Positions 16,401-35,945 are shown, counted from the first letter of the stretch. The stretch: DNA of 64,000 nucleotides from Chloroflexi bacterium ADurb.Bin180 (GCA_002070215.1 MWCV01000002.1:34952-98951), one strand, 5' to 3'. Notes: a model not told the origin generated them from the letters alone. Translations and numbers: made by a program.

Positions 16401-16433
16401 AAAAACGAGCCCCGGTGGTGTGCCCGGGGCTCC
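16401..16433 (-). terminator. Rho-independent terminator for the 1,666-aa surface-protein gene, possibly bidirectional
   Basis: Read on the minus strand: GAGCCCCGG-gcacacca-CCGGGGCTC followed by GTTTTTTG. It lies between the convergent genes ending at 16342 and 16463. Confidence 0.6.
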
Positions 16434-16462
16434 CTAGCGTTAGCTCTAGACCGTTCTACTCA

Positions 16463-21460: not shown

Positions 21461-21602
21461 CTTCAACCTCCTAGCTTGGCCATGAAGTTGGTGCAAGGTA
21501 TGCTGCTCCGCGCAAGCGGAACAATCCATAGCAGATGACGTGACATGATTATACAAGATACGGGCCCCACTGCGTGATGCACTGTCTATGCTGCCGCCAG
21601 GG

Positions 21603-21639
21603 CTCTCCTCCCGCAACGGAGAATGCTGCGGGAGGAGAG
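21603..21639 (-). terminator. GC-rich hairpin 12 nt after the stop of the 4,300-aa gene (13-bp perfect stem, 11-nt loop); terminator or processing/stability element between the two giant genes
   Basis: CTCTCCTCCCGCA-acggagaatgc-TGCGGGAGGAGAG. No U tract. A TATAAT hexamer follows on the minus strand (complement at 21548-21553) and could be the -10 of the downstream giant gene. Confidence 0.35.
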
Positions 21640-21651
21640 TTGTCTATCCAG

Positions 21652-24600
21652 CTACCGCCACTTGAGAATCACGGGCAGCGACGTCTTCCAGATTCGCTGC
21701 GGCGGCAGGGTCGGCGTCGGTGTGGGCTGGTAGTAAAAGTCCACAAACGCCTCGCCACGCTTTCCACCCGCCGTAGCGGCGACGCGAGCCATGCCCGGTA
21801 TGGCACTGGAGGTCAGGATCGCCCTCGCCCTGCCACCTATGGTTGCTGTGGTAAAGGCCCCGCCGCCAGGGAAGCTGCCCAGGTCGGTCGAGAACACCAC
21901 AGCGGTACGGTCCGCCACATAGTTGCCGTAGCGGTCACGGAGCTCGGCCTCAACCGTGGAGGTGGTCACACCGTTGGCCGCGATCGACAGCGGGTTGGCC
22001 GTCACGAGTATGTCAAACACTGGTCCGGGCACGTATTCGACCACCACCGTTGCCTGGCGTGCACCCGCCTCGATTCTTACGCTCGCCGATCCTGTTTCGT
22101 TAGGTGAGGTGAGCGTTGCCACTGCCCGACCGTTAGCTGTAGTTGTCGTTCGTGGCGTGAGGCTGCCACCTCCCGATAGCAGCGTGAAGGTCACCACCGT
22201 CCCGTCCGTCACCGGATAGTTGCCGCAGTCAAACACCCTTATGCGGATGGCGGCGTTGTTCCCGCCCACCGGCACCCGCGGCGGCTCGGCATTTGCTTCG
22301 ATGCGATCCGGCGGCCCGACCAGGAAGGTAATGGCATAGGTACCGACGACCGAGTTACGCCAGTTCTCAGGCCATGCCCAGACCGTTGCCGGACCTGGCA
22401 CGCGCCCCGAACTGATGATCGCCTGAGCTACTCCGTTCAGGGTGCGGCCGCCATCGATCGGCTCCACATCACCCTGTGGTGTCACATCGAACACCACGAC
22501 CGTACCATCCTTCACCGGATTGCCATAACGATCTTCGACCACCACCGTCGCCAGCCCCGTTCCACCGCAGCCGTCGATGATGGCTGGTTCAACCGACCGG
22601 AAGCGAATGGTGTGTGGCGGACCGGGCTCAAAAGTGATCATCACCGCGGCCGAGTTGGCACCCACCTTGGCTTGAACCAGTGCCCTTCCGGCCACCGTCG
22701 AGTACAGGCCGACAACGCCCCTGCCACCCACCGTCGTGGTGAACGTTCGAGTGATCAGGCTATCCTTGAACCAACCGAGGCTGGTGGTCAAAGAGATCAC
22801 CGTGCCATCAAGCACCGGGTTACCGAACTCGTCTCTCGCCGTGACGGTGATTTGAGACGAGTTGCCCACCGGCAGTACCAGCGGGTGAGCCATAATGCTG
22901 ACTAGCCCTGGGCCCGGCAGGAAGCGCACGTTCACCGTCCGTACCGCCGCACCGCAGGATGCCGTCACCGTAGCGGTCACGGCGGAGTTGCCCGACGCGA
23001 GGATCGTCGTCACGCCGCCACTCACCGTGTAGTCAACGGCTGGGCTCACGAACCCGGCGTTGGTGGCAAAGCTCACCGCAGTGCCGTCCTCAACCCAGTT
23101 GCCGTACATGTCGACTACGTTGGCCTGGATCACCGAGGTGGAACCACCGACCGGGATCGCTGTCGGCATGGCCATCAACGTCATCGTGAAGGCACCCAGC
23201 GGCCGGATCAGTACTTGCGTGGTCGCGTGCAGTGCACCGGCCGACGCTGTGATATCGGCAAGGCCCGCACTCGGGCCCGAGGTAAGTGTTGCCACCGCCG
23301 TTCCGCCCGACGTAGGTATCGTGACCACCGAACTTCCGGGGAAGCCGCCCAAACTGGCAAAGAAGGTCACCATCGTGCCGTCTGGCGCGGGGTTCCCATA
23401 CACGTCGCGCAACGTTGCGTACAGGCTCGACGTATCTCCACCGACGTAGACAAAGCTCGGCGAGGCATAGAGAGTCATCGTCACTGGTTCACTGGGCACG
23501 ATGGTTGCGTTGGCTCTGCCCACATTGTTCGCGCCGGCAGTATCGGCTGTGCTTGAGTCAACCGTTGCCGTGTTGGTAATTACTGTTGCCGCCGGCCAGT
23601 AACGAGCAGTGTTGATCCTGCCGCCAAACTGGATGCTCAACTGTTCACCAGGAGCCATGTTGCCGAGTGACCACCAGAAGTTGGTGCCGGGGCTGATCAC
23701 CAGCGGCGCGCGGCTGAACCAGGTGTCCAGCAGCCAGTCTGTGCTCAGCACACTGTCGCTGATGAGGTCGTCCAGCGTCGTCGCAGTGGCCGTCATCGGT
23801 CCGTTGTTTCGGATATCGAGGCTGAAGGTGATCCATTGGCCAATCTCGATACTGCTCGCCGGCTGGATACTCTTTGTCACCGACAGGTCAGCCGGCCCGA
23901 ACCTTACGTTGACATAGCCCGGGATCAGCACGGGCACGATGCCGGCGGTATCCGACACCGTGACTCCAGCGACGATCGCCGTGCCCACGTGCGTCGCGGC
24001 AGTCAACACCGCCACGGCCTCTCCGCCGCTCGTCGTCATACCTGAACGGACGGCATCGATGCGTATTGGGCCAGTCCCAGGCCGGTGGGTGATGCGCAGT
24101 ACATGCGCCTCAGTCGGATCACCCGCCCAGGTGAACACCCTCTCAGCGCGGAAGGTCACAGACCCGCCCATGTTGATGTCGCCAAGCAGGTTTGCACCAT
24201 CCAGATAGACGTCAGCCCAGCCGTCGCCCGGAGCCCTGATGTACATGATGCTGACGCCGTTACCGTGAAAGTTCCAGTACATCGACGCGCCATCGAGCGA
24301 GGTCATCCGATAAGCCCCGCCACTCGCTGCGCCGTCGGCTGTCGACGTCCAACTCGACGGCGGTTGCTGCGTCAGAGCTGATTCCTCCGCATAGCCATAG
24401 ATCATCGACCCCAGCGAAGTTGTAAAGCCGACAAAGTAGCCATCCGGCGAAGGATAGCCGCCCGAGTCCAGCACCCTCGCCACGATAGTCGACGTGGAGA
24501 TGCCGTCGGCCGGAATCGCTGCCGGGTTCGCCACCAGCACCGTCTCTGCCGGTGGGCCAACGTTGATCCAGACCGTCGTCTCAGCCAACACTCCAGCCGT

Positions 24601-27600
24601 GGTCGCCGTTATCCGTGCCGCCCCGACCGAGTTCTGGCTGTAGAAGGTCAGATTCACCCTGCCGTGACTATCTGAGGTGCGCGTTACGTTCGTAACGACG
24701 TCGCTCGCATTCAGGCTGCCAATCGTCGTGGTGATGTTGACCACTCGGCCAGCCACCGGATTACCGCACGCATCATAGACCACGATCCTCACCGCGGACG
24801 ATTGATCGACCAGGATATTGGCCGGTGTAGCCGTGATGGTCATGGTGAAGGGCGGCCCCGCCGTTAGCACCACACTCTTCGAGGCCAAGTTCTCCCCGTC
24901 CTGATCCTCGACGGTAAGCGACTTGATCTCTGCGTCATTCGACACTTCTCCCAGGAACGGCTCACAGGCATGGCGCGCCGTGACTGTGATTGCTCCGCTC
25001 ACGCCCGGCTGCAAGTTGCCCAAGCTCCAAACCCAGATGTTGTCGGTTGGGTTCTGGGGCGGACCAACGTTGGGCCGCGACGTGGAGCCAACATAGGTTA
25101 GCAGGCTAGGCAGCGTATCCGTTACCACAGCAGCGGTACCCTGGGTTGCGCCCGCATTCGTATAGTACAGGGTGAACGTTACCAGCTCATTCGGCGGTAT
25201 CTGTTCCGGGTAGCCCACCTTGCTGATCATAAGATCCGTGCACAGGAATTCAACCTCGGCCTGCCGAATGAGAACCTCTCCAATGCCAACCTCGTACCTG
25301 CTTTCCACCGCAGTGGCCGTTACCGTTGCCGTGGAGCAGTCCTGCGCCGAGGTGAGCAGAGCCGTTGCCACTCCGTTCACGGTAGTAGCGCCGGAGCGGA
25401 TGGCATCGAGCCAAACGCGGCCAGTCACACACTCAACGCGCACTGTGTGCAACACAGATGGGTTGAGACCGTTCACCACCGTCTCGCGCCGCCACATTGT
25501 CGACCCGGCGCTGAGGTCGATCAGAGCTTTCTCGTCGCCGTCGACAAACACCCTGGCCTGGCCACCGCCAACGCCGCGTCGGTACATCACAGACACGGCG
25601 CTGCCCCGGAACTCCCAGCTTACCCAGGCCCCGGGGTTGTCCGTGTAGATAAAGTTGTTGCCACTCGCATTCGCGTTGAACGTCGGTGGGGACCAATCAC
25701 CTACCGAGCGGTCGACTTCAGGCCCCTCGGCCTCGACCAGGTCATGCAGCATGGAGCCGAGGTCGGTCTCAAAGCCAACCATCGTTCCGGTATTGACCAG
25801 ATTGCCGTTCGCATCGCGAACCGTCGCCGTCAGGATCGCTGTGGATACCCCGTCGGCCGGGATCGCCACCGGGCTACGCTCCAGCACCAGACTGGACGGA
25901 GGACCTGACATCACGTCGACGCCAAGAACGCCTTCCTCTCCATCCACCGTCGCGGTGACCCAGATCGTACCGGCAATGGTACCTGCCTTGAGCGTTGTCC
26001 AGTGAGTGCCATTCGGCTTGAGCACTCGCGACAGGGGACTCATACTGGCGGTGCCAAGCGGCGAGAACGCAAAGGTCGCCGTGTGTCCCGCACAGGGGTT
26101 GTTGAACTGGTCCACAGCGGTCACGGTGATGGTCGCCGTGCTCGTAAAGCCTGGGGGTTCCAGACCAAGCGGCCAGATCTGTGGCGGGTTCGCTTGCAGT
26201 GTAATGGTTACAGCCGGGCCGGCGACAAAGTCTACCCAGGTGTAGACGGACTGGAATGGAGTCGTCGCCGTGATATAGGAGCGGCCCACAACCGTGGCCG
26301 ACTGGAGCGCTGCATAGGCCCTTCCGCTACTCGTCAACCGCTGCACCGGCGGCGTACCGAAGGAGCCAAGGCTGTTGGTCAGTGTGATGACCGTATTGTC
26401 CAGCACATCATAGACCGGAGTGCACGTCGCGCAGCGCATCGTTAGCGTGACGCTCGACGTAGACACACCATCGGCCGGAATCTCCGTCGGTGCGCGCGCA
26501 ATGTCCAGCCTGATTGGCGGTGTGTAGTCGACGTTCGCTCCGAGGCCAGTAAACACGTCGCGCGGCACCGTGCTCGCACTTGGACTGCTCGTCGGGCTGT
26601 TGTGACCCCACCAGTTGCCTTCCGCATCTGCCGCCACGGTCGTCACGTTGCTATAGATACCAAACTTGCCATTGGCATAGATGCTGTTGCCATGCAATTG
26701 CAGCGGTGCGCCAGCCGTATAGCCCAGAGAGGTCAGGTAGATGCCGTGATTCACGTTGTCGCGTATCCAGTTGCGCAGAATCACCGGCCCCACGTTGCTG
26801 CCATCCAACCCGATGCCGGCAGCATCAGGCAAGAGACCGCCGGCGTTTTGCACGTAGGCGATCACGTTGCCCTCGACATGGACGTTGGTTGTACCGTTGA
26901 GCGCCAGACCGCCCAGGTCAAAACCGCCGCCAGTGCTGCGGTTGGTGGACATGATGGTATTGCTCAAGACGCTGGTGTTCAAGGTGTTGGAACCGATGCG
27001 AATGCCGTCAAAGGCAATGCCGTGCACGCGGTTCAGTTCCACCACGTTGTCGCTCGCTGACCCGGCGACACCAGTGACCCGCAGCCCAAATCCGCCCACC
27101 TCAAAGATGTGGTTGTTGCGGATTCGGTTGCGATTTCCTGCGTTCAAGTCAGCACCGAACCCGGCACAGTCACGGAAGGCATTGTCCGCCACCACGCCGT
27201 CGTTCACAAAAGTGGCGGTGAACGCGCCAGTGGCGCAGCCGCTGATGACGTTGTTCGTCACGGTGATGCCATTGAGCGGATTGGCCAGGCGACCATCCAG
27301 GAACATGCCAAAGCCAAAGTTCGAGATGGCAAAGCCCTCTATGGTCGACCCATCCGCAGAGGCAGTGACCAGGATGCCGTTTCCGGAGCCGCTGCCCACC
27401 AGATGGGTAGTGCCGCCGCTGCCGGCGCCATCCAGGTAGATTGGCTTGCCGATGGTGATGCCGCCGGAGTAGACACCGTCAGCTACATGCACCGTGCCCC
27501 AGCTAGCGACAGCGGTGATCGCCGGCGGAATGGTGCTGAAGGCATCATAGCCCCACTGGTGCCCGTCGTTCGGGCAGATGTCGCAGTAGGCCGGATTGAC

Positions 27601-30600
27601 CCAGACCTCCTTCGGCTGCAGGAAAGGCACGATCAGCGTTCGCGTTGGGAAGGTGCCGACGACCCGTGCTACGCCTGGAATGTCTATTCCAGTCGCGATG
27701 ATGCGGGCATTCACCGGCGGCAGCATGCTGGCGGTGAGCGTTGCCTTGGCCTGCCCGCCAACGACTGCAGCACCAGCACGGAACGCGTCAAGGCGTACGA
27801 CGCCGGACTGGCACACAATCTCCAACTGATGGCTAACGTTCGGGTCGAGGTCGGCAGCAATTACCTGCTCTCTCCAGCCCGGTATCGCGTTCGTGTCGAT
27901 ATCGACGGGGCTGGCGCCATCGATCCTCACGCGCATGACGCCTCCCACTCCGTCCTGGTAGTAGACTACCGAGACCGCCTCACCACGGAAGTTCCAGTAC
28001 ACCGAGGCAGCCACCGTCGCCGTCCGGATGTACCATCCACCACTGGCAGTTCCGTCCGGGAAAGCGGTCCAACCCGTAGACGAAATCACTTCAGCCGCTT
28101 CGGCCTCCACGTAGCGGTAAAGCGAGCCATGGGTCGTAGTCATACCGACCATGGTCAGGTCCGGAACCAGATTGCCGTACTGATCCAGAACGATGGCCGT
28201 GATGAGCGAAGTATCCAGGCCGTTCGCACGCAGCGAAGGCGGATTGGCTGTAAGCGAGGTGATGGTGTAGGGTGAGCCGGCGATGATCTGGACGTCGGCA
28301 AAATCAGCCACAAAGCCAGAGTACGCACCGACGATGGCCCTGCCCGGGATGATCCCCGCGTGCAGCGTGGTCGTGGCCACTCCTCCGCCAAAAACCGTGC
28401 TCGAGATCGGCACCAGAGTGCCCAGGGTCGTATCAAAGTAGATTGGCGTGCCAGGCGACACGGGGTTGGCATAGATGTCGCGCACCTCTGCTGATATCAC
28501 GGACGTTTCTCCGACCCTGATCCGGTTAGGAGCCGCCGTCACACTGATAGTGGCCGGGGCAAGGGGCAGTATCTGAACCGACGTGGTCACCACGCCGTGG
28601 TTAGCCACATAGCCAGTGATGACCGCAGTCCCAGCCACAGTGCCTGGCTTGAACGCGACGATAGTCCAACCTCCGTTGAGCGCACTGACTGCGACAGGAC
28701 CCGGAGGAGCTCCAAGCTGACCCAGACTGGTGGTCAGAGTGATGGGCATTCCATCGAGCATGCAACACCCGCCGCCACAGGCTGTGGCAGTGATCACGAT
28801 CGATGGACCGCCTGCGAGAACCGTTGGCGCAGAAGGAGCCAGCAGTACACGAATGCGCGGGTCATAATCGACGTTCACCGGCGGTCGGTAGATGTCACGC
28901 GGCGCCGAAGTACCCGTTGTCGGTGTGTTGCGCCCCCACCAGTTGCCGGTCGCATCGACGATGGGCGGAGCCGCCACCTGGTTGCGTATTCCAAACCGAC
29001 CGTTGCCATAGATATGGTTGCAGTGCAACACTGGCGGTGCTCCGACGTTGAACGCCCAGAGCAGCACGCCGTCGTTCACGTTGTTCAGGAATTGGTTGTA
29101 GCTGGCGCTCGAGCCAGAATCGCTCCCGCCGATCCATAGCCCGGCTGTGTCATTGCTGCCGCCTGCTGTTCCGACGCCGAACACCTTGTTGTACTCCACG
29201 ACCGAATTCGTCGTGTTGTACAAGACGATGCCACCTTCGTTAAAGCCCAACCCGCTGAGGGTGAGGTTGGTTGTGTCTATGATATTGCTCACCACCGAGG
29301 TGTTGGAGCTGCTGTCGCCAGCGACGATGCCATTCCAGCCCAGGTTCTGCAGCGAGTTGTGGGAGATCAGCGCCCCGGTCGTGCTGCGAGTCCTCAGGCC
29401 AAAGCCGCCGATGTCATGGAACCGGTTGCCAATGAAGGACGGGGTGTTGCCGTTGTACAGGTCGATGCCATATCCGCTGCCGGCATAGATCTCGTTGTCA
29501 GCAAAATACCCTTTGTCTACAAAAGTAGCCGTAATGGCGCCCGTGGCATTGTTGATCAGGGCGTTGTTCACGAACTGGAATCCGTCAATGTGGTTCGCGG
29601 TCCGGCCATCCAGATACACACCCAGCCCGAAATCGCGGATGGTGAACCCGTCGATCGTCACGCCGTCTCCCGGCCGACGCACCACCACTCCCGTACCGCT
29701 TCCGGCACCCTGGATAAACGTACTGGAGCTGCCATCACCAACCAGGTGCATAGTGCGAGTAACAACCACCGGCAACGGATAAGTGCCGGCCAACACTCGT
29801 ACGGTGCCGTTCGTCTTGACTCCCTGCACGCCCCCGGGAATCGTGTCGAATGCGTCTGAGCCGATACTGGCCGATCCGCCGCCGACATAGCCCGGCAGCG
29901 TCACCACGGTACCATTCGGCAGGCCGACCCAGTCATCGTCCACCCACACCACATCACCCTGACCAAAGATCACCGTGGTGGTGACGACCAGGTCGGTCAG
30001 AGGCAGATGCCCGATTCTCTCTGTTGCATACACAGTAGCTGTATGGGTTTCAGTCGGGCTCAAGATCGCCAGTGCTGGTGCCTTGAGCTGAGCCAGGGCT
30101 TGCCCGCCGCTGCTCACAGGGCCGGACCGGAACGCGTCCAGCCGAATGGTCGCCGACTGCACCGTGACTTCAATGACGTGGTCCACATAGGGGGACAGGC
30201 CTGTGGCAATAACCCGCTCGACCCAGGCTCCTGCGCCGTTGGTATCCACGTCAATGGGAGCACCGGCGTCTATGCGCACGCGCATGACGCCTCCGCTGCC
30301 AAACCGCCTGTAGCGGAGCGCCACACCCTCACCGCGGAAGACCCAGGACGCGGCTGCTCCCGGCGTGGTCGAGTTCAGGTAACGTCCGCCGCTGGCCGTG
30401 GGATCATTGACCCCCGACCAGCCGGTAGATGTCATCACTACCGACGACTCGGCCTCGACAAAGGCATAGTTGACAATGGAGCCGAGCGTAGTGGTAAAGC
30501 CCACCAGCTCGCCGTCAGGGATGGGATTGCCCAGACAGTCCACCATAGTAACGGTCAGATTAGACAGCGCGACACCGTTCGCGGGCAAGGTTGTCGGAGC

Positions 30601-33600
30601 AGCAGACAGGGTCATTGTAGTGACTGGCCCTGCCGTCACCTCGACACTCGCCACTGCTGTCAGAGTGCCGCCCACCGTGGCACTGACGATGCCTGTCCCA
30701 CTCAGCCCGCCAGAGGTGAACGTGGTGGTAGCCGTCCCCGTGCCGGCGAGGGTGGTGTTTGAACTCGGGAACACGCTGCCAAGCGCATTGCTGGTGAAGG
30801 ACACCACGACACCCGGCACTGGATTGCCGTACGCGTCCTCAACCGTCGCCGTGATCACCGCTCTATCGCGCGGTGTATCACAACTGTTGGGTATGGCCAG
30901 TGGCCAGCTTTCCACCGAGATGCTGGCTGGCGCGCCGGCGGTCAGAGTCACAGTGGTTGTGTACTGCGCTATCCCCGGGTCAGGCACACCGCCGACGATG
31001 GCCACTCCGGCGATCGTACCGGCCCGCAGTGTCGCATAGGCCTTGCCACCGCCAAAGCCGGCGGTCGTCGGGTAGATGACCGTTGCCAGGTCGCTGGTAA
31101 AGGTGATCAACGTTCCATCGAGAATGTTGTAGCCGCCGCCCTGGCCCGTGGCCGTGATCGCCGAGGTGGCCATTCCGTCGGCCGGGATGGTGCTCGGCCC
31201 CGCCTTCAGGCCTACCGTAATGGGCGGCGAAGACCAGACACTCGCAGCGCTACGAACGTCCCTCGGTGTGCTCGGGCCCACAGTCACCGTGTTGTGACCC
31301 CACCAGTTGCCTTCGGCGTGGGTCCGTGTGATGAGCTGGTTGTTCAAGCCGAACAGAGCATTGCTGTAGATGCTATTCCCGTGAATCAGAGGTGCCGTAA
31401 CAACCAGCGTCGAGCTGATGTAGATGCCATGGCCAGCGTTGCTCTCAATCAGGTTGCTCTCCACCGTGATGGGAATCGAGCAGTCGAAAAGGTACACGCC
31501 TGCCGAATTGGTGCGATTGCCTTCGGCGTTGCTGGCGGCAGCGATCCTGTTGAGGCGAACAACACTGTCACTAGTGATGCCAATCAGGGTTAGTCCGCCG
31601 CGGTTGTGGTTTGCGTCGGGCGCAGCGCCATATCCGTCCAGCCACCCCTGGTTCGTGTTCGCTATCGTGTTCGTACCGACGGTGACACTGGCTCCGCCGC
31701 CGCCGTTGACCAGGATGCCATCCCAGAACACGTCGTGAACGTGGTTGCCATAGATGCCATTGTTGAGCGTAGAGCCACTCAGCTCAATGCCCACGTTCTG
31801 CAGGTCATAGATGTGGTTGTTGTCAAACGAGTTCTGGTTGCCCGTGTTCAGGCGGATGCCCACACCCAGGTTGTTGTAGACGGTGTTGTAGCACACCGTG
31901 TTGTAGGACGAGTTCTCCAGGTAGATGCCATTGTTGCCCAGAGTCACATCGTTACTGCAGATGGTACTGGTAAAGACATAGCTGCCGCGGACACCATAGG
32001 TGGTGTTCGACTCGAGCACGTTGTTGGTGATGGTTGCAGCCAGGACGCGCGGCCCGGGGCCAACTCCCGTGCCGCGCAGGTAGATACCTGTCTCAAAGTC
32101 GCGAATCCTGAATCCACTGATCGTGACATAGTCCGCCCGGTCCACATAAAAGCCCCTGCTGCCAGCGGCATCCGTGCCCACCACCAGCACCGAACTGGCG
32201 CCGCTGCCAAGTAGGCTCACCCGCTTGGCTACAGTGACTGACTCGGCATAGGTGCCTGGCAACACGTGTACGGTTCCATTGGCCAGCACACCGTTGACGC
32301 CGCCCTGAATCGTATCATAGGCGGTATAGTTCCAGATATGGCCGTCGTTGCCACAACTGCTGCAGTAGTCATCATCGACCCAGACTTCAAGGGGGCCAGG
32401 GAAGCTGACCGTTGTCTGGCCTGTGGGCCAGCCCGTGGACGTTCCCGACACCTCAGCCTGGATTGCCGTGGCGCGAACGACCGCGACACCATTGCTCGAG
32501 GGCGCCGTCAGAGGGACGCAGACAATGCCGCCGCTGGATACCGTTCCGGAGCGGAACGCATCCAGCCACACTCGACCACTGCCAGCGTGCTGAATCCGAA
32601 TGATGTGGGGCCCCGGCGTCAGTGAGACGCTCAACTGCCGCTCGACCAGCCATTGCAGAGAGCCGCTGGCAAAGTTCAACGTGGTTACATACGAGCCGTC
32701 AATGATCACATCGGCCTGCCCGCCGGTCGTGTTGGTCGGATAGATCAGTGATACCGCTTCACCGCTAAAGCTCCAGGTGACTTCGTCGCCAGGGTTGTCA
32801 GAGTAGATGTACGCCCCATTGCTCGCCGAGCCCGAAAGGGCGGTAGGCCAGGTGCCAAGTTTCGTCACCCCGGCGCTTTCCGCTTCGGTATAGGCATAGT
32901 CCACCGAGCCAAGCGATGTAGTGATACCGATCATTGTGTCATCGACGACCAGATTGCCGTAGATGTCGGTGACGGTGATGCAGATCGAGGCAGTTGAGAC
33001 GCCATCAGATGGCAGCTCTGTCGGATCGGAGGATACGGTGACCGTGTACGGAGGTCCAGAGACAGACGGCGCGGTGCTGCGTATCCAGCGTACCGCATCA
33101 GCACAGGTGTCTCCGGCACTCGACGAATTCAGCTCGACGTACTCTCCGGTTGAGGCACCGGTGCCTGCCTTGAACGGCCACACGCCCAGAGGGTACCACC
33201 CCGACGGATCAAAGTCGGCGACAACGTTGCCATCCGCATCGAGCGACTCGTCCACATACACGGTGGCCGTGCCGCCATTGTAGTGGACCGTATAGGGCAC
33301 GGCCGACGGGCGCGCGCTGTGCACGCTCCAGTGAGCCTGCACTTCATAGTAGCCGTCTTCCGGGATAGGGCTGGTCACGCACGGCGAAAAGACCGCAGTC
33401 TGTGTCAGCCAGCTAGTAGTCTCATACCGATAAGAGCCCGCGTAGCCGCCCGCGGTGCCAGTGTTCCACTGCCCCGGGGGCGCATCGCTGTAGCAGGATG
33501 TCGCTTCATCGACCACCACGGGCGGGAAAACCGGGGTGGCTGTCGGCGTAGGGGTCCTGGTCGCGGTATTGGTAGGCGTAGGTCCAATCGAGGTAGCAGT

Positions 33601-34548
33601 AGGTGTTGGACTGGCGGTTGGCGTAGGGGTCGGGGGCGAGCCACTCCAGTCAACGATCAGCTCTGGCCTCTGGTCTGCCAGTGCCCATTCTGAGCTGCAG
33701 TAGTAGTTGATGCGCTGATTGTCGGACCCGATCAGTACAAAGCCCTTGTTAGCCGAAGGATTCGTCACCCAGTCCTGAACCTGGGCTGTAACGTCCCAGT
33801 AGTGCCACTCACCTTCCGAGTTCACCGTCACGGTCGTAACGGGCGTGAAGGAATAGTCCGTAGCCATGTCCTCGCAGCCCTGCACGCCCCAGAACGTAGA
33901 AGCGGTGGCCTTCTGCCAGGACGCAGCGACCTCGGTCCACGGCCGAACGACCTCATACGCACCGATTCTCAGTGGTCCAACCAGGTTGCGGTCAAAGCAA
34001 TACAACCCCAATCTGGCGCTGAGAACGGTTGCCGAGTTGGGAATGGCGGCTGGAGTGAGGTCAAAGTTCAGCAACGCCTTGTAGGCGCCATCCTGGCCAA
34101 TTGCCAGACGCGGCTCCCCTCCGGGTGCCTTGGTGGGGTTCCACTTGTTCAGGTAGGTATCAACCATCCCCGTATAGGAAGGATTGGGGTAATTGCCATA
34201 CTGGAACACGACGGTGCCGCCCAGGGCAGCCGAACTGGCGTCTCCAGCAGGAAGGACCTGTGCCTCGGGCAGGTCGCCGGCAGCCACAGGGGAGGTCATC
34301 AGGCGCAACACGAGGGCAGGACCGGCGAACAGGAATCCCAGACACAGCACAAACACCAGCAAAGACAGAGCAAGGCCGTGAGAACCGGATTCCTTGCCTC
34401 TCGAGAGGCGCGACCTGGCGCGTGCAGCCGAAGGTCTTGCTCGCACGTCAGCACCCACCGAAGAGCGGAAGGGTACTGGCCGGGTCACAGTGGGACGCAC
34501 GTCTGGTCCCGCATCCGAAGGGGTCAGTCCGAAGGTCGTCTGGTCCAT
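21652..34548 (-). CDS. Giant membrane-anchored surface protein (~4,300 aa): N-terminal cytoplasmic tail plus one TM anchor, DNRLRE/CBM-like beta-sandwich, three tandem super-modules (Big_1 domain, R module, parallel beta-helix, then Big domains), DUF11 repeats, six C-terminal Big_1 domains
   Basis: Continuous 12.9-kb ORF. I chose the ATG at 34546-34548 (MDQTTFGL...) with GGGAGG 9 nt upstream; the ORF-track start at 34623 overlaps the -10 of the upstream promoter. Hydrophobic anchor LALSLLVFVLCLGFLFAGPALVL. Three beta-helices begin VWVDDD..C..CGNDGH.W and end GNWWG(H/R)N. There are many Big_1 segments (DG.STS.ITATV.D..GNPV). DUF11 segment: VGYPEQIPPNELVTFTLYYTNAGATQGTAAVVTDTLP. Confidence 0.85.
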   Translation of the reverse strand: MDQTTFGLTPSDAGPDVRPTVTRPVPFRSSVGADVRARPSAARARSRLSRGKESGSHGLALSLLVFVLCLGFLFAGPALVLRLMTSPVAAGDLPEAQVLPAGDASSAALGGTVVFQYGNYPNPSYTGMVDTYLNKWNPTKAPGGEPRLAIGQDGAYKALLNFDLTPAAIPNSATVLSARLGLYCFDRNLVGPLRIGAYEVVRPWTEVAASWQKATASTFWGVQGCEDMATDYSFTPVTTVTVNSEGEWHYWDVTAQVQDWVTNPSANKGFVLIGSDNQRINYYCSSEWALADQRPELIVDWSGSPPTPTPTASPTPTATSIGPTPTNTATRTPTPTATPVFPPVVVDEATSCYSDAPPGQWNTGTAGGYAGSYRYETTSWLTQTAVFSPCVTSPIPEDGYYEVQAHWSVHSARPSAVPYTVHYNGGTATVYVDESLDADGNVVADFDPSGWYPLGVWPFKAGTGASTGEYVELNSSSAGDTCADAVRWIRSTAPSVSGPPYTVTVSSDPTELPSDGVSTASICITVTDIYGNLVVDDTMIGITTSLGSVDYAYTEAESAGVTKLGTWPTALSGSASNGAYIYSDNPGDEVTWSFSGEAVSLIYPTNTTGGQADVIIDGSYVTTLNFASGSLQWLVERQLSVSLTPGPHIIRIQHAGSGRVWLDAFRSGTVSSGGIVCVPLTAPSSNGVAVVRATAIQAEVSGTSTGWPTGQTTVSFPGPLEVWVDDDYCSSCGNDGHIWNYTAYDTIQGGVNGVLANGTVHVLPGTYAESVTVAKRVSLLGSGASSVLVVGTDAAGSRGFYVDRADYVTISGFRIRDFETGIYLRGTGVGPGPRVLAATITNNVLESNTTYGVRGSYVFTSTICSNDVTLGNNGIYLENSSYNTVCYNTVYNNLGVGIRLNTGNQNSFDNNHIYDLQNVGIELSGSTLNNGIYGNHVHDVFWDGILVNGGGGASVTVGTNTIANTNQGWLDGYGAAPDANHNRGGLTLIGITSDSVVRLNRIAAASNAEGNRTNSAGVYLFDCSIPITVESNLIESNAGHGIYISSTLVVTAPLIHGNSIYSNALFGLNNQLITRTHAEGNWWGHNTVTVGPSTPRDVRSAASVWSSPPITVGLKAGPSTIPADGMATSAITATGQGGGYNILDGTLITFTSDLATVIYPTTAGFGGGKAYATLRAGTIAGVAIVGGVPDPGIAQYTTTVTLTAGAPASISVESWPLAIPNSCDTPRDRAVITATVEDAYGNPVPGVVVSFTSNALGSVFPSSNTTLAGTGTATTTFTSGGLSGTGIVSATVGGTLTAVASVEVTAGPVTTMTLSAAPTTLPANGVALSNLTVTMVDCLGNPIPDGELVGFTTTLGSIVNYAFVEAESSVVMTSTGWSGVNDPTASGGRYLNSTTPGAAASWVFRGEGVALRYRRFGSGGVMRVRIDAGAPIDVDTNGAGAWVERVIATGLSPYVDHVIEVTVQSATIRLDAFRSGPVSSGGQALAQLKAPALAILSPTETHTATVYATERIGHLPLTDLVVTTTVIFGQGDVVWVDDDWVGLPNGTVVTLPGYVGGGSASIGSDAFDTIPGGVQGVKTNGTVRVLAGTYPLPVVVTRTMHLVGDGSSSTFIQGAGSGTGVVVRRPGDGVTIDGFTIRDFGLGVYLDGRTANHIDGFQFVNNALINNATGAITATFVDKGYFADNEIYAGSGYGIDLYNGNTPSFIGNRFHDIGGFGLRTRSTTGALISHNSLQNLGWNGIVAGDSSSNTSVVSNIIDTTNLTLSGLGFNEGGIVLYNTTNSVVEYNKVFGVGTAGGSNDTAGLWIGGSDSGSSASYNQFLNNVNDGVLLWAFNVGAPPVLHCNHIYGNGRFGIRNQVAAPPIVDATGNWWGRNTPTTGTSAPRDIYRPPVNVDYDPRIRVLLAPSAPTVLAGGPSIVITATACGGGCCMLDGMPITLTTSLGQLGAPPGPVAVSALNGGWTIVAFKPGTVAGTAVITGYVANHGVVTTSVQILPLAPATISVTAAPNRIRVGETSVISAEVRDIYANPVSPGTPIYFDTTLGTLVPISSTVFGGGVATTTLHAGIIPGRAIVGAYSGFVADFADVQIIAGSPYTITSLTANPPSLRANGLDTSLITAIVLDQYGNLVPDLTMVGMTTTHGSLYRYVEAEAAEVISSTGWTAFPDGTASGGWYIRTATVAASVYWNFRGEAVSVVYYQDGVGGVMRVRIDGASPVDIDTNAIPGWREQVIAADLDPNVSHQLEIVCQSGVVRLDAFRAGAAVVGGQAKATLTASMLPPVNARIIATGIDIPGVARVVGTFPTRTLIVPFLQPKEVWVNPAYCDICPNDGHQWGYDAFSTIPPAITAVASWGTVHVADGVYSGGITIGKPIYLDGAGSGGTTHLVGSGSGNGILVTASADGSTIEGFAISNFGFGMFLDGRLANPLNGITVTNNVISGCATGAFTATFVNDGVVADNAFRDCAGFGADLNAGNRNRIRNNHIFEVGGFGLRVTGVAGSASDNVVELNRVHGIAFDGIRIGSNTLNTSVLSNTIMSTNRSTGGGFDLGGLALNGTTNVHVEGNVIAYVQNAGGLLPDAAGIGLDGSNVGPVILRNWIRDNVNHGIYLTSLGYTAGAPLQLHGNSIYANGKFGIYSNVTTVAADAEGNWWGHNSPTSSPSASTVPRDVFTGLGANVDYTPPIRLDIARAPTEIPADGVSTSSVTLTMRCATCTPVYDVLDNTVITLTNSLGSFGTPPVQRLTSSGRAYAALQSATVVGRSYITATTPFQSVYTWVDFVAGPAVTITLQANPPQIWPLGLEPPGFTSTATITVTAVDQFNNPCAGHTATFAFSPLGTASMSPLSRVLKPNGTHWTTLKAGTIAGTIWVTATVDGEEGVLGVDVMSGPPSSLVLERSPVAIPADGVSTAILTATVRDANGNLVNTGTMVGFETDLGSMLHDLVEAEGPEVDRSVGDWSPPTFNANASGNNFIYTDNPGAWVSWEFRGSAVSVMYRRGVGGGQARVFVDGDEKALIDLSAGSTMWRRETVVNGLNPSVLHTVRVECVTGRVWLDAIRSGATTVNGVATALLTSAQDCSTATVTATAVESRYEVGIGEVLIRQAEVEFLCTDLMISKVGYPEQIPPNELVTFTLYYTNAGATQGTAAVVTDTLPSLLTYVGSTSRPNVGPPQNPTDNIWVWSLGNLQPGVSGAITVTARHACEPFLGEVSNDAEIKSLTVEDQDGENLASKSVVLTAGPPFTMTITATPANILVDQSSAVRIVVYDACGNPVAGRVVNITTTIGSLNASDVVTNVTRTSDSHGRVNLTFYSQNSVGAARITATTAGVLAETTVWINVGPPAETVLVANPAAIPADGISTSTIVARVLDSGGYPSPDGYFVGFTTSLGSMIYGYAEESALTQQPPSSWTSTADGAASGGAYRMTSLDGASMYWNFHGNGVSIMYIRAPGDGWADVYLDGANLLGDINMGGSVTFRAERVFTWAGDPTEAHVLRITHRPGTGPIRIDAVRSGMTTSGGEAVAVLTAATHVGTAIVAGVTVSDTAGIVPVLIPGYVNVRFGPADLSVTKSIQPASSIEIGQWITFSLDIRNNGPMTATATTLDDLISDSVLSTDWLLDTWFSRAPLVISPGTNFWWSLGNMAPGEQLSIQFGGRINTARYWPAATVITNTATVDSSTADTAGANNVGRANATIVPSEPVTMTLYASPSFVYVGGDTSSLYATLRDVYGNPAPDGTMVTFFASLGGFPGSSVVTIPTSGGTAVATLTSGPSAGLADITASAGALHATTQVLIRPLGAFTMTLMAMPTAIPVGGSTSVIQANVVDMYGNWVEDGTAVSFATNAGFVSPAVDYTVSGGVTTILASGNSAVTATVTASCGAAVRTVNVRFLPGPGLVSIMAHPLVLPVGNSSQITVTARDEFGNPVLDGTVISLTTSLGWFKDSLITRTFTTTVGGRGVVGLYSTVAGRALVQAKVGANSAAVMITFEPGPPHTIRFRSVEPAIIDGCGGTGLATVVVEDRYGNPVKDGTVVVFDVTPQGDVEPIDGGRTLNGVAQAIISSGRVPGPATVWAWPENWRNSVVGTYAITFLVGPPDRIEANAEPPRVPVGGNNAAIRIRVFDCGNYPVTDGTVVTFTLLSGGGSLTPRTTTTANGRAVATLTSPNETGSASVRIEAGARQATVVVEYVPGPVFDILVTANPLSIAANGVTTSTVEAELRDRYGNYVADRTAVVFSTDLGSFPGGGAFTTATIGGRARAILTSSAIPGMARVAATAGGKRGEAFVDFYYQPTPTPTLPPQRIWKTSLPVILKWR

Positions 34549-34621
34549 GGGATGGGCCTCCCTGTTCGTGAATGGTCGCGTCCTTCGATTGCTTGAGGTG
34601 TCGCTGCTTGGGTTAACAGCC

Positions 34622-34651
34622 ATTATAGCACTACCTTGTCCGCTTTGTCAA
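34622..34651 (-). promoter_or_regulatory. Near-consensus sigma70 promoter for the 4,300-aa gene (minus strand: TTGACA-18-TATAAT)
   Basis: The complement of TTGACA is at 34646-34651 and of TATAAT at 34622-34627. The predicted TSS is ~34615, giving a ~65-nt leader to the ATG at 34548. Confidence 0.5.
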
Positions 34652-34820
34652 AGCACCAGAATAGGTCAAGAACGAGACGGGTTGGAGCAGAGAGCTGCTT
34701 ACCAGTATACCATAACTCCGGGAACCAAGAGGGTCGCAAGACACGCCGAGAGCAGGGTGCCCCCTCCCTCTGTCGTTGATGACGTGACATCGTGCAAAAA
34801 GGATACGTCGCCCGTCGCCG

Positions 34821-34850: not shown

Positions 34851-34859
34851 GGCTGAACC

Positions 34860-35945
34860 ATGGAGATCCGATCCTCGCTGGTCAGTGCATTCGATCCCGT
34901 ACAGTGGGACGCTTTTTCAAAGGAAGCAGAAACCGGCCACCTGCTTCAGTCGTGGGGCTGGGGAGAACTGAAGGCGCCCTTTGGCTGGCTGCCCATTCGT
35001 GTAGCCGTTCTGGAGCACGGGCACATCGTTGCCGCCGCCCAGGTCCTTTGCCGCCACCTTCCGCTGGACTTGGTCACACTAGCCTATATGCCACGCGGGC
35101 CAATGTTGAGCCAGCCGCTCTCGCTTCGTTCGCCTGATTCCGAGCTAATCGAGGCCGTTCTGGCGACCTGCCGGCGCCGGCGCGCAGTGATGCTCAAGCT
35201 AGAGCCAGAATGGCGAGACACAGAAGTGGCCCGTCAATGGATGTCTGCCTGGCGGCTCTCGGCGAGCAGTTGGTCAGTGCAGCCCAGGCGAACCGTACTG
35301 GTCGACCTCCGCCTGGACGAAGATGATATTCTGGCTCAGATGAAGCCCAAGACCCGCTACAACATCCGCCTTGCCGAGCGCAAGGGCATCGTCGTTGCGC
35401 AGGGGACCGCCGACGACTTGTCTGACTTTTATCGGTTGCTGCGCGTGACCGGCGAGAGGGCCAGTTTCGGGGTCCACACCCTCGATTACTATCGTCGCGC
35501 CTGGAGCCTTTTCCGCGAGCGCGACAGCGTGGCTTTGTTCCTGGCCAGGTACTCCGGGCGCACGCTGGCGGCAATTCTGGTCATCGCCTGGGGCAAGACG
35601 GCCTACTATATGTATGGCGGCTCCTCGGACGAAGAGCGGCAGCGCATGCCCACTTATCTCTTGCAGTGGGAGGCGATGCGCTGGGCCAAAGCAAGGGGCT
35701 GTCAGCTCTATGATCTGTGGGGCATTCCCGATGTCGACGAGAGCAAAGTCGGTGAGGATATTCAGGCCGCGGAGGCCAGCGGCGTCCTCAGTCACGGAAT
35801 GGGTGGGCTCTACCGCTTCAAGCGCGGCTTTGGTGGCCAGGAGACCCGCTACATCGGCGCCTGTGACGCGGTGCTCAATCCCGTTCTGTACCCCCTGATG
35901 ATGGCGCTGCGGACGCACCGCAACCAGGCACAGCAGGCACAATGA
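34860..35945 (+). CDS. FemAB-family peptidoglycan interpeptide-bridge transferase (aminoacyl-tRNA-dependent, FemX/FmhB-like)
   Basis: FemAB signature N-terminus FLQSWGWGELK, with two GNAT-like halves, at ~360 aa. Confidence 0.75.
   Translation: MEIRSSLVSAFDPVQWDAFSKEAETGHLLQSWGWGELKAPFGWLPIRVAVLEHGHIVAAAQVLCRHLPLDLVTLAYMPRGPMLSQPLSLRSPDSELIEAVLATCRRRRAVMLKLEPEWRDTEVARQWMSAWRLSASSWSVQPRRTVLVDLRLDEDDILAQMKPKTRYNIRLAERKGIVVAQGTADDLSDFYRLLRVTGERASFGVHTLDYYRRAWSLFRERDSVALFLARYSGRTLAAILVIAWGKTAYYMYGGSSDEERQRMPTYLLQWEAMRWAKARGCQLYDLWGIPDVDESKVGEDIQAAEASGVLSHGMGGLYRFKRGFGGQETRYIGACDAVLNPVLYPLMMALRTHRNQAQQAQ

Follow-up and report, generated by a model that had tools for sequence, protein, structure and literature searches.

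The closest described counterparts of the protein analyzed here are the fibrillar adhesins, exported, acidic, and fast-evolving proteins in which putative binding modules occupy a single tip and a stalk of tandem immunoglobulin-like (Ig) repeats, such as a long Big_1 array, or of CLIPPER repeats is combined with a surface anchor. CLIPPER is a CnaA-like isopeptide domain with a K715/D748/N806 triad and is typical of fibrillar-adhesin stalks (PMC12617251). Ig domains of the Big_1 and Invasin_D3 type are also found in the invasin/intimin inverse autotransporters. A third point of reference is provided by archaeal and bacterial DNRLRE and beta-helix surface proteins related to the Methanosarcina disaggregatase (PMC2447325, PMC9971899), which join a DNRLRE/CBM96 domain to one PF13229/NosD-type helix within 400-900 aa; CBM96/DNRLRE relatives bind alginate and are found in lyases, disaggregatase, and S-layer proteins (PMC9971899). 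Within a 64,000-nucleotide stretch of DNA (the window) from a filamentous Anaerolineae (Chloroflexota) bacterium, we examined a 4,298-aa protein that can be compared with all of these. Our preferred reading, to which we assign a probability of about 0.6 from sequence and structure models, is that it is a strongly expressed, Sec-exported, 444-kDa fibrillar-adhesin-like protein that carries glycan-binding modules on a mechanically reinforced stalk.

An ORF scan and translation both give a minus-strand frame without interruption over 21652..34623, with ATG 34548 as the start and a product of 4,298 aa, 444 kDa, and pI 4.8. The in-frame ATG at 34623 is excluded as a start, since it overlaps the -10 box (TATAATG) and is formed by the final bases of that box. 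Orthologs that are intact and collinear, with lengths of 4,278, 4,274, 4,280, 4,163, 4,253, and 3,888 aa, are present elsewhere, in at least six Anaerolineae/Chloroflexota MAGs, and align with few gaps at 38-63% identity (51-63% for five of them, 38% for the relative at locus L073). The protein diverges faster (51-63% identity) than the product of the adjacent MIPS gene (83-89%). DNA repeats within the gene reach at most 57 nt, at 60-82% identity, and the internal repeat units, none of them near-identical copies, are old; because they are only 30-49% identical at the amino acid level, a repeat-assembly artefact is very unlikely. A first-pass annotation had claimed a single unbroken 12.9-kb frame from ATG 34548 and had argued against a pseudogene or a mis-assembly of repeats. 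Translation, size-matched collinear orthologs, and diverged repeats sustain both points, and on this sequence evidence the ORF is a real, conserved gene. Its description as one of the largest plausible bacterial ORFs was overstated, as bacteria are documented to encode proteins of over 10,000 aa, the longest of them reaching 85,804 aa (bioRxiv 10.1101/2023.11.21.568195); in Anaerolineae, a comparatively high prevalence of genes longer than 5 kb has been reported (PMC10608941). The gene, its expression signals, and its neighbors are as follows.

21652..34548, minus strand: giant surface protein CDS, 4,298 aa plus stop (translation; full-length collinear orthologs)
34622..34651, minus strand: sigma-70 consensus promoter TTGACA-18-(TG)TATAAT, 12/12 match
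34557..34563, minus strand: Shine-Dalgarno (SD) sequence AGGGAGG, 8 nt before ATG 34548, invariant in 5/5 orthologous loci
21603..21639, minus strand: 15-bp GC-rich hairpin directly after the stop codon, T-run absent
16463..21460, minus strand: downstream paralog, 1,666 aa (family searches), C-terminal tag NLPLITRRRFMP
16407..16432, minus strand: intrinsic terminator after the paralog, 9-bp stem with 8 GC pairs, then a T-run
34860..35945, plus strand: divergently transcribed FemAB-family gene (Pfam FemAB, E 2.8e-49)

The near-consensus promoter and SD that had been proposed upstream are well supported. With its upstream TG, the TTGACA-18-TATAAT sequence is the sole 12/12 match in the 20 kb from 16000 to 35900, and in 5/5 aligned orthologous loci the -35 box, the -10 box, and the SD are invariant, with diverging sequence between them. 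The 38%-identity relative at L073 has the same promoter consensus upstream. A seemingly conserved 'REA(Y/H)P' in an in-frame reading of the leader is pseudo-conservation, because the SD at that place is conserved. Conservation of a perfect promoter and a strong SD across genera suggests high expression. The hairpin that follows the stop codon has a dG of -37.3 kcal/mol (z -4.2), and a hairpin of other sequence stands at the equivalent place in locus L008. The paralog consists of a signal peptide, Golvesin_C, a beta-helix, Big_1 with a nested R module, DUF11, a Big_1 array, and the tag; in L008 and L007 its orthologs directly adjoin the giant gene, and in L073 they lie nearby. The FemAB-family gene is adjacent and divergent in L001-L004, L006, and L073, and an Rfam scan of the window gave no match.

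From the N terminus, the order of domains is a DNRLRE/CBM96-like sandwich, Golvesin_C, three super-modules, two Ig units, both holding a nested carbohydrate-binding-module (CBM)-like domain and accompanied by a CLIPPER domain, an array of six Ig domains, and a tail. Each super-module combines an Ig domain with a nested CBM6/35-like jelly roll (the R module), a pectin-lyase-fold beta-helix, and two further Ig domains.

34381..34548, minus strand: basic N-terminal tail, aa 1-56, 10 K/R versus 5 D/E
34306..34380, minus strand: hydrophobic segment, aa 57-81, Kyte-Doolittle peak 2.7, the sole strong one
33652..34161, minus strand: DNRLRE/CBM96-like beta-sandwich, aa 130-299 (NF033679, Pfam CBM96, Disaggr_repeat)
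33514..33642, minus strand: Pro/Thr-rich linker, aa 303-345 (translation)
33085..33516, minus strand: Golvesin_C (CBD-like), aa 345-488 (PF25275)
32404..33063, minus strand: split Big_1 domain 1, aa 496-715, with nested R1 at 32536-32904 (AF2, Foldseek, profile)
31249..32403, minus strand: right-handed parallel beta-helix 1, aa 716-1100, cap VWVDDDYCSSCGNDGHIW, closing on EGNWWGHN
30646..31236, minus strand: two plain Big_1 Ig domains, aa 1105-1301 (profile matches)
29968..30636, minus strand: split Big_1 domain 2, aa 1305-1527, with nested R2 at 30112-30477
28879..29967, minus strand: beta-helix 2, aa 1528-1890, without the CxxC-NDGH cap
28291..28866, minus strand: two plain Big_1 Ig domains, aa 1895-2086
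27625..28284, minus strand: split Big_1 domain 3, aa 2089-2308, with nested R3 at 27763-28122
26539..27624, minus strand: beta-helix 3, aa 2309-2670, cap VWVNPAYCDICPNDGHQW
25918..26526, minus strand: two plain Big_1 Ig domains, aa 2675-2877
25249..25911, minus strand: split Big_1 domain 4, aa 2880-3100, with nested R4 at 25381-25752
24874..25236, minus strand: DUF11/CLIPPER 1, aa 3105-3225 (PF01345; K/D/N triad)
24571..24864, minus strand: plain Big_1 Ig domain, aa 3229-3326
23905..24564, minus strand: split Big_1 domain 5, aa 3329-3548, with nested R5 at 24031-24405
23548..23892, minus strand: DUF11/CLIPPER 2, aa 3553-3667 (PF01345; K/D/N triad)
21742..23499, minus strand: six tandem Big_1 Ig domains (stalk), aa 3684-4269
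21655..21741, minus strand: PT linker and conserved tail ending ...WKTSLPVILKWR-COOH, tag at nt 21655-21681

The layout proposed in the first-pass annotation proves almost entirely correct when placed beside the Pfam, NCBIfam, and profile matches, and four of its details need revision. The five R units exist but are inserted within Big_1 domains rather than following them; exactly two Ig domains, not two to three, trail each helix; the distal region of DUF11, R, and Big_1 domains is present but holds an additional Big_1 between the first DUF11 and the fifth R unit; and of the three helices, said to share a VWVDDD..C..CGNDGH.W opening, helix 2 is without the cap and helix 3 opens VWVNPAYC. Big_1/Invasin_D3 domains number 18 (13 plain and 5 split), and Pfam scores the giant protein at 317 bits for Big_1 and 207 bits for Invasin_D3. 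An Ig HMM built by iteration strayed into the R modules and helices (e.g., 404-497 and 945-1015), and only strong full-length matches were kept. A word-indexed protein search with one super-module as the query returned three weak matches, from a collection that does not contain the window's own protein.

The N-terminal region follows the expected pattern of a basic tail and one transmembrane anchor. The tail (aa 1-56) is poorly conserved among orthologs and is predicted to be cytoplasmic or else the n-region of a long signal peptide, while the hydrophobic segment carries a motif, LFAGPAL(V/A)LRLM, that is conserved in them. A lipoprotein was rejected, as the Cys of this segment lies outside any lipobox and is Ser in orthologs. 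Neither a Pfam family match to the N-terminal 130 aa nor an NCBIfam model for the N-terminal segment was found. The beta-sandwich that follows had been described as DNRLRE/CBM-like, and it exceeds the cutoffs of both NF033679 (E 6e-27, 94.6 bits versus 34) and PF24517 (CBM96; 39.8-49.9 bits versus 26). The domain of about 150 aa held in common with the neighboring gene can now be identified as Golvesin_C, with PF25275 matching at E 1.9e-15 on the isolated segment and at E 1.3e-16 in the neighboring gene.

Split Big_1 domain 1 with R1 was modeled by AF2 with a pLDDT of 88.7 and a pTM of 0.80, and in Foldseek the R model matches CBM35/6/36 with target-normalized TM values of 0.63-0.71 (E 1e-6 to 3e-4). 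When R is excised, both flanking halves match one Big_1/Invasin_D3 profile. On the modeled structure, R thus folds as a jelly roll of the CBM6/35 kind and sits within a Big_1 Ig domain; it opens on a motif of the EAE...ASGG.Y type, which we take to be that familiar from CBM6/35. R shares the jelly-roll fold predicted here with CBM35, CBM6, and CBM36 but differs from them in falling below the Pfam CBM_6 threshold and in being set into an Ig-domain loop rather than forming a separate module. Pfam CBM_6 is unmatched by the giant protein, and CE2_N matches single R modules weakly (18.7 bits versus a cutoff of 27.9). The repeat is widespread, with 9,472 cluster representatives and up to 16 copies per protein. 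The two DUF11 repeats that had been recognized score 80.3 bits with PF01345 (cutoff 24.6), and their Lys/Asp/Asn triad is invariant in 11/11 aligned copies with a spacing close to the reported K715/D748/N806. From this alignment they are CLIPPER domains with a predicted isopeptide triad.

Taken with the fibrillar adhesins (PMC12617251), the protein is alike in its long Big_1 array, its CLIPPER domains with the isopeptide triad, and its putative binding modules, as well as in being exported, acidic, and fast evolving; the stalk typical of that group is represented by 18 Big_1 and two CLIPPER domains. It differs in having an N-terminal hydrophobic anchor or signal with no LPXTG or OmpA-like anchor, in bearing an undescribed short C-terminal tail, and in the placement of its binding modules, which are interspersed three times along the chain and not gathered at a single tip. 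An inverse autotransporter was rejected, even though PDB profile matches are to invasin and InvE, because no N-terminal beta-barrel, LysM, or C-type-lectin tip was detected (Pfam, 14 families at E <=0.01); the host, a Chloroflexota bacterium, differs too. The DNRLRE and beta-helix proteins have the same pairing of domains but one helix each, whereas the present protein embeds three helices in an Ig scaffold of 4,298 aa that also contains nested CBM-like modules. P0002, for instance, combines DNRLRE, a beta-helix, PKD, and a PGF-CTERM-like end, and the VWVDDDYC..C.NDG..W cap also occurs in Thermoplasmata, Zixibacteria, Ignavibacteria, and other groups.

Among adhesin, sheath, and scaffold, an adhesin-like scaffold would probably fit the sequence evidence best. 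Export would proceed via Sec, given the single hydrophobic segment and the positive-inside charge distribution. Judging from domain families and predicted folds, the CBM-like modules and beta-helices would bind polysaccharide, conceivably in the organism's own sheath or extracellular polymeric substances (EPS), in the envelopes of neighboring cells, or in particulate glycans, and the Ig and CLIPPER domains would form a rigid, isopeptide-stabilized spacer. On this reading, the protein would probably mediate attachment or matrix organization rather than catalysis. The broader suggestion of a sheath, an adhesin, or a polysaccharide-processing scaffold holds as far as an exported modular surface protein is concerned, while its enzymatic component finds no positive support.

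That component nevertheless defines the alternative that survives best. It is conceivable, but unlikely, that the protein is a surface multi-catalytic polysaccharide-processing enzyme in which the three helices act as lyase, hydrolase, or epimerase, each with its own CBM35-like module, and in which DNRLRE/CBM96 and Golvesin_C are further targeting modules, so that the whole would be a single-polypeptide analogue of a cellulosome, degrading or remodeling EPS or environmental glycans. The structural neighbors of the helix are AlgE4, GH87, PL6, capsule depolymerases, NosD, and the adhesin PfbA, the best of them enzymes. The best Foldseek match of the R and Ig model and a strong match of the helix fall on the same solved GH87 catalytic unit, whose make-up is mirrored by the pairing of beta-sandwich and beta-helix, and AlgG is within reach of the helix profile (E 5.6e-4). 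In the same direction, alginate, hyaluronate, and pectate lyases contain DNRLRE, as does disaggregatase (PMC9971899), and an enrichment in glycoside hydrolases has been reported for Anaerolineae genomes (PMC10608941).

These similarities do not extend to the level at which catalysis could be assigned. PF13229 (pectin-lyase-like/CASH right-handed beta-helix) matches the giant protein above its gathering score, and the predicted fold is a right-handed helix of three sheets, but the family matches of the helices are generic only (PF13229/PF05048, Beta_helix/NosD in Pfam and NCBIfam), and no HMM of the PL1/3/6/9 or GH28/87/110 families matched in the Pfam scan. Identity of the helices to any solved enzyme is 10-19%; against the GH87 alpha-1,3-glucanase unit and AlgE4/AlgG it is 13-17%, and the helices differ from these in that no DPH, conserved catalytic acids, or family-level HMM match were identified. 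DPHD, or YG(F/I)DPH(D/E), is the catalytic motif of the AlgG/AlgE4 helix, and the 'DPH' tripeptide is absent from all 4,298 aa. An AlgG/AlgE-type mannuronan C5-epimerase was rejected on that ground and because the AlgG profile match covers generic C-terminal coils rather than the catalytic region. NosD orthology was rejected as well (TIGR04247 at 73.6 bits versus a cutoff of 300), and the ORFs of the window that were scanned include no nos genes (nosZ/nosF/nosY context). When helix 1 was searched against the PDB as a single sequence, the only matches were chance ones (superoxide dismutase and EnvC).

Conservation of acid/base residues was considered as well. Across the three modules and five orthologs, a comparison of limited power at 51-63% identity, the invariant residues are mostly G, N, V, and I, and no acid/base residue of the helix bodies is conserved in all three modules. 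Among the five orthologs, invariant D/E/H/K/R make up 7 of 111 invariant positions in helix 2 and 12 of 115 in helix 3, mostly in the cap, whereas in helix 1 a larger number of polar residues is invariant (11 D, 6 H, 4 R, and 3 E). A search for catalytic residues thus yields some candidates in helix 1 and almost none in helices 2 and 3, and helix 1 could be catalytic. The reading of the helices as polysaccharide lyases or hydrolases finds no positive support, with CAZy-type family match and DPH both absent. Because there is no DPH and almost no conserved acid/base residue, glycan binding is better supported than catalysis.

The C-terminal end may bear on how such an adhesin-like protein is held. 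A tail of the form Y[LM]P[LIV][IV]x[KR](x0-5)-COOH is present in all orthologs, in the neighboring paralog, and in unrelated Anaerolineae surface proteins, always after an Ig/PKD stalk. Besides the giant protein and the paralog, tail-bearing architectures include a signal peptide with S8 protease and Big_1, an M6-like peptidase, and other R/Big_1/PKD giants. As a cleavable signal peptide and functional domains come first and the Ig stalk and tag last in the paralog and in other tag-bearing proteins, a cell-proximal, anchoring position of the tail is suggested. A sortase (LPXTG) substrate was rejected, as the C terminus, ...SLPVILKWR, contains no TG and has just 3-4 hydrophobic residues; no NCBIfam model for C-terminal tails, sorting signals included, matched, and we found nothing specific in the literature on giant proteins of Anaerolineae or on a C-terminal sorting signal of Chloroflexi. 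It could be speculated, as a possible though doubtful proposal, that the tail is a previously undescribed Anaerolineae surface sorting or anchoring signal, analogous to LPXTG/PEP-CTERM but much shorter. If so, the protein would be tethered by its C terminus with the glycan-binding modules outward, the FemAB-family neighbor would hint at attachment to peptidoglycan cross-bridges, and the N-terminal segment would serve either as a signal anchor or as a long signal peptide that is cleaved off. Should that segment instead be a stable anchor, the glycan modules would lie nearest the membrane and the stalk would be distal, the reverse of classical fibrillar adhesins.

The conserved neighborhood and expression signals also lend themselves to a reading that we regard as quite improbable, namely, that the protein is a structural envelope component (S-layer-like, sheath, or a connector between the cells of a filament), synthesized in large amounts, with the R modules, the C-terminal tail, or both fixing it to the wall. 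High expression, as suggested by the perfect promoter and strong SD conserved across genera, would suit such a role, and through the conserved, divergently transcribed FemAB-family gene the locus is linked to the chemistry of peptidoglycan cross-bridges. Arrays of R also occur joined to a wall hydrolase of the NlpC/P60 type (P0116), which would be expected of a repeat that binds the wall, and the first descriptions of DNRLRE came from S-layer and surface proteins of archaea (PMC9971899). However, Pfam and NCBIfam searches revealed no SLH domain or other known domain for S-layer anchoring or lattice formation, and a 444-kDa chain of at least 30 beads-on-a-string domains is unlike known lattice-forming proteins; fast sequence evolution is typical of exposed adhesins but compatible with a structural role, too. 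An artefactual origin, be it a pseudogene, a chimeric assembly of repeats, or a frame open by chance in GC-rich DNA, is effectively refuted: the GC content of the window, 61%, does make chance ORFs longer, and many long antisense ORFs overlap the gene, but intact collinear orthologs of the same length come from six independent assemblies, curated domain families match every segment, near-identical internal repeats are absent, and promoter and SD are conserved.

In conclusion, this is a large but fairly ordinary giant adhesin-like bacterial protein with a few unusual details. Its orthologs are already in databases under generic names, one with the JGI label 'adhesin/invasin', and because of this the finding is useful rather than surprising; taken alone, the protein adds another case to the large multidomain surface proteins. 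Three of its parts can be tested: a CBM-like module nested in an Ig domain, a beta-helix with a widespread Cys/Asp-rich cap, and a short candidate anchoring tail. Anaerolineae are abundant filamentous bacteria of digesters, activated sludge, and sediments, and their means of adhering to flocs, granules, and partner cells are, to our knowledge, poorly understood. For that question the locus offers a concrete, conserved, and apparently strongly expressed candidate.

The giant gene (21652..34548, minus strand) is best read as encoding a highly expressed, Sec-exported surface fibre that would bind polysaccharide. Its frame is uninterrupted over 4,323 codons (21652..34623). The ATG at 34623 was rejected as the start, as it overlaps the -10 hexamer (last two bases plus G, TATAATG) and lies upstream of any transcript from the TTGACA-18-TATAAT promoter. 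That promoter, with an upstream TG (34651-34622, minus strand), is the sole 12/12 match within 16000-35900. In an alignment of the window's upstream region with those of four orthologous loci, both promoter hexamers and the ACAGGGAGGC Shine-Dalgarno block were invariant while spacers and flanks diverged, in keeping with the promoter and good ribosome-binding site that the first-pass annotation had placed before the ATG at 34548; the same promoter consensus lies upstream of a relative at 38% identity. AGGGAGG (34563-34557) is read from the sequence 8 nt before this ATG, and the alignment supports it as the start because the orthologs' "REA(Y/H)P" ahead of Met is merely the Shine-Dalgarno block translated in frame. 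The predicted product has 4,298 aa, 444 kDa and pI 4.8, is rich in G/T/V/A/S and contains 36 Cys. Within the 5' leader (34549-34621, minus strand), a block CGAAGGAAGC..ACCATTGAC between the -10 box and the Shine-Dalgarno block is partly conserved in the window and loci L001 and L002, is not conserved in L003 and has no Rfam match.

Domains were called with Pfam and NCBIfam, and Ig domains additionally by our own mapping, which finds 18 of the Big_1/Invasin_D3 type, 13 of them plain and 5 split by a repeat module, R.

Domains of the giant protein (residues; all minus strand)
57-81 (nt 34306-34380), only strong hydrophobic segment; net-positive tail before, net-negative stretch after
130-299, DNRLRE/CBM96 (Pfam and NCBIfam), then a PT linker up to Golvesin_C
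345-488, Golvesin_C, 145 aa (Pfam), also in the neighbouring gene
496-715, Ig with nested R1 (nt 32536-32904)
716-1100, beta-helix 1
1105-1301, two Ig
1305-1527, Ig with nested R2 (nt 30112-30477)
1528-1890, beta-helix 2
1895-2086, two Ig
2089-2308, Ig with nested R3 (nt 27763-28122)
2309-2670, beta-helix 3
2675-2877, two Ig
2880-3100, Ig with nested R4 (nt 25381-25752)
3105-3225, DUF11
3229-3326, single Ig
3329-3548, Ig with nested R5 (nt 24031-24405)
3553-3667, DUF11
3684-4269, six Ig
4270-4298, PT linker and tail

Nearly all of the layout proposed earlier is borne out: a single N-terminal hydrophobic segment after a basic tail, a DNRLRE/CBM-like domain followed by a PT linker, a domain of ~150 aa common to the neighbouring gene (now Golvesin_C), two DUF11 repeats and six terminal Big_1 domains. 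The three beta-helices are likewise present (Beta_helix/NosD-type), but their opening cap is not common to all three, as helix 2 lacks CxxC-NDGH and helix 3 opens VWVNPAYC. Two plain Ig domains, rather than two to three, end each super-module in our mapping, and the two further R modules expected beyond the super-modules are found (R4, R5), an extra Ig ahead of the fifth R unit having been overlooked. The hydrophobic segment carries F(A/L)GPA(L/F) and then LRLM in close orthologs, a motif unusually conserved for a plain anchor and perhaps a site of recognition or cleavage.

A further correction to this map concerns R, first described as following a Big_1 domain. Its flanks being suspected halves of one Ig domain, we deleted R in silico from five units. 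The rejoined halves gave one continuous match to Invasin_D3/Big_1 positions ~3-81 spanning the junction, whereas intact units matched only profile positions 2-45, which argues that R is inserted within Big_1. An AlphaFold2 model from an alignment of the six window copies (five here, one in the neighbouring paralog at 19241-19633, minus strand) reached pLDDT 88.7 and pTM 0.80. Its Foldseek matches in the PDB are CBM35, CBM6 and CBM36 domains (target-normalised TM-scores 0.63-0.71, E 1e-6 to 3e-4), as well as CE2 esterase N-domains and the beta-sandwich of the GH87 catalytic unit. The model thus makes R a jelly roll of CBM6/35-like kind, and the deletion test places it in a Big_1 loop. An R-only profile recovered 9,472 of 1.84 billion cluster representatives (389 at E <=1e-30), typically with 4-16 copies in proteins of 1-5 kaa, so that, judged by profile searching, R is a common module of a very large family without a dedicated curated model. 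One protein, P0116, joins eight R copies to an NlpC/P60 wall-hydrolase domain, a hint that R may bind cell-wall glycans.

Whether the beta-helices are binders or enzymes is not told by their fold, as identities to structural matches are only 10-19%. It is possible, though we consider it unlikely, that the giant protein is a multi-catalytic glycan-processing enzyme. G, N, V and I (Asn ladder and turns) predominate among the residues invariant in three modules of five orthologs; invariant D/E/H/K/R are very few in helices 2 and 3, which argues weakly against catalysis by these two, and more frequent in helix 1, which could be catalytic. Against an enzyme, the whole protein contains no DPH tripeptide, and the sole match of a 16-sequence helix profile, AlgG (E 5.6e-4), is confined to generic C-terminal coils. 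Membership of NosD was rejected (73.6 bits, where the cutoff is 300). The N-cap VWVDDDYC..C.NDG..W...F.TIQ (32350-32403 and equivalents; loci L009-L072) is widespread: proteins with one helix carry it across many phyla of bacteria and archaea (among them Thermoplasmata, Zixibacteria, Ignavibacteria and Planctomycetota). Its acidic, Cys-rich make-up is suggestive of a metal or disulfide cap. The archaeal protein P0002 resembles the giant protein in joining DNRLRE to a helix with this N-cap, followed by PKD and a PGF-CTERM-like end.

The remaining domains could supply a stalk. DUF11 now goes by the name CLIPPER; the domain folds like CnaA, has a Lys-Asn isopeptide with an Asp as catalyst (K715/D748/N806) and is typical of fibrillar-adhesin stalks (PMC12617251). 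We aligned 11 copies, the neighbour's and both of those in each of five orthologs. All 11 have a Lys in strand one, an Asp some 34 residues further on and an Asn near the end, a spacing that agrees with the reported residues. The 18 Ig and the CLIPPER domains would then form a long, proteolysis-resistant, beads-on-a-string scaffold. That the giant protein is a structural sheath or S-layer-like component seems improbable to us, and we prefer the polysaccharide-binding fibre.

A short motif, Y[LM]P[LIV][IV]x[KR] plus 0-5 residues, closes both the giant protein (21655-21681) and its paralog (16466-16501). Giant-protein orthologs end, all behind a PT linker, in SLPVILKWR, HLPVIMKNHR, YLPIIVKNRYR, YLPVITRSTFR, RLPIIMKNR or RMPIIIKKFAR, and paralogs in NLPLITRRRFMP, YLPMILRRR or YMPLIMKNNTR. 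Beyond the window, the tail occurs at loci L001-L004, L007 (13586-14815, minus strand), L008 (3467-8449), L062 (1348-4593) and L073. The L062 protein (signal peptide, S8 protease, six Big_1) ends FLPLVLR and an M6-like peptidase of L007 ends IYLPLIFKS; further R/Big_1/PKD giants with the tail are P0118, P0146, P0236 and P0153. In 2,523 ORFs 11 matches were observed and in 257 proteins 9, against chance expectations, from a rough residue-frequency estimate, of about 2 and about 0.3. No NCBIfam model matched the tails, and we found no literature description. The tail always stands behind an Ig/PKD stalk, on otherwise unrelated secreted Anaerolineae proteins, and wherever these have a classical signal peptide, the functional domain lies towards the N-terminus, with stalk and tail at the C-terminal end. 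As stalk and tail occupy the place of the anchor in fibrillar adhesins, the tail may serve as a sorting or anchoring tag not described before, marking a putative anchored end. The window's S8 protein ends, after a PT linker, in ...LRLYIPEFLFALEN, which resembles the motif only loosely.

The window is ordinary chromosome (rpoC, class A PBP, RseP, MutY, SurE, YchF and similar genes) at about 61% GC throughout, with no tRNA or Rfam match.

Features around the giant gene
11052-14312, plus, M6 peptidase, InhA-like, C-terminal DUF11
14438-16342, plus, S8 subtilase with SdrD_B domain
16463-21460, minus, paralog, 1,666 aa
21603-21639, minus, 15-bp hairpin without T-run right after the giant gene stop (dG -37, z -4.2)
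21652..34548, minus, giant gene
34860-35945, plus, FemAB
beyond FemAB, minus, inositol-1-phosphate synthase (MIPS)
39731-41446, plus, secreted protein with two PA14 domains
41521-42612, plus, MoxR/ChlI-type AAA ATPase, after the PA14 gene
42650-43582, plus, VWA protein

The order M6, S8, paralog, giant gene, FemAB, MIPS recurs piecewise in L001-L004, L006, L007 and L008, and the genes of both secreted proteases run towards the paralog in conserved synteny (window, L008). FemAB, of a peptidoglycan cross-bridge aminoacyltransferase-like family, is the divergent neighbour in every relative examined (L001-L004, L006, L073), including the 38%-identity L073 (8661-9707, paralog nearby); here it shares with the giant gene a 311-bp intergenic region holding both promoters. 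The paralog combines a classical signal peptide, Golvesin_C, beta-helix, Big_1 with nested R, DUF11, Big_1 array and C-terminal tail in an order shuffled relative to the giant protein, and orthologs of the paralog accompany the giant gene in L008, L007 and L073. The post-stop hairpin, which has a counterpart of other sequence at the equivalent position in L008 (about 3357-3398), could be a terminator, attenuator or mRNA 3'-end stabiliser; the paralog's 3' side carries a canonical terminator. In L004, too, the PA14 gene is found close to the giant gene.

When one genome per GTDB species was scanned, Chloroflexota/Anaerolineales MAGs yielded full-length relatives with intact ORFs of 4,278, 4,274, 4,280 and 4,163 aa. 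The five-way alignment is collinear end to end with few gaps, 51-63% pairwise identity and about uniform conservation; protein collections add P0255 (4,253 aa, 50% identity) and P0107 (MBC7263335.1; 3,888 aa, 38%, collinearity retained). MIPS is 83-89% identical between these genomes against 51-59% for the giant protein, which therefore evolves fast, like exposed proteins. Internal repeats are 30-49% identical in protein and, in DNA, <=57 nt at 60-82%, and we see nothing here that could make an assembler collapse or join them wrongly. Pseudogene or mis-assembly, already doubted in the first-pass annotation, is effectively excluded by these repeats and by intact collinear orthologs elsewhere, leaving an artefact a negligible prospect. 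A word-indexed protein search appears to miss giant proteins: its longest matches were 912 and 704 aa for two queries, and the window's own protein was absent; an exhaustive representative search recovered orthologs of 3,300-5,100 aa.

Giant multidomain surface proteins are well known as a class; genes longer than 5 kb are reported to be relatively frequent in Anaerolineae (PMC10608941), and bacterial proteins >10,000 aa have been recorded, the longest with 85,804 aa (bioRxiv 10.1101/2023.11.21.568195). Database entries already name orthologs "adhesin/invasin" or "right-handed parallel beta-helix repeat-containing protein". This particular architecture is uncharacterised and modestly unusual in its CBM nested in Ig, triplicated CBM and helix unit and conserved C-terminal tail. 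In the polysaccharide-binding fibre proposed here, DNRLRE/CBM96, Golvesin_C and the five CBM6/35-like modules would bind polysaccharide, probably together with the three beta-helices, while the Ig and CLIPPER domains would give reach and toughness. Such a protein may help a filamentous, aggregate-forming Anaerolineae bacterium to attach or to organise its matrix.
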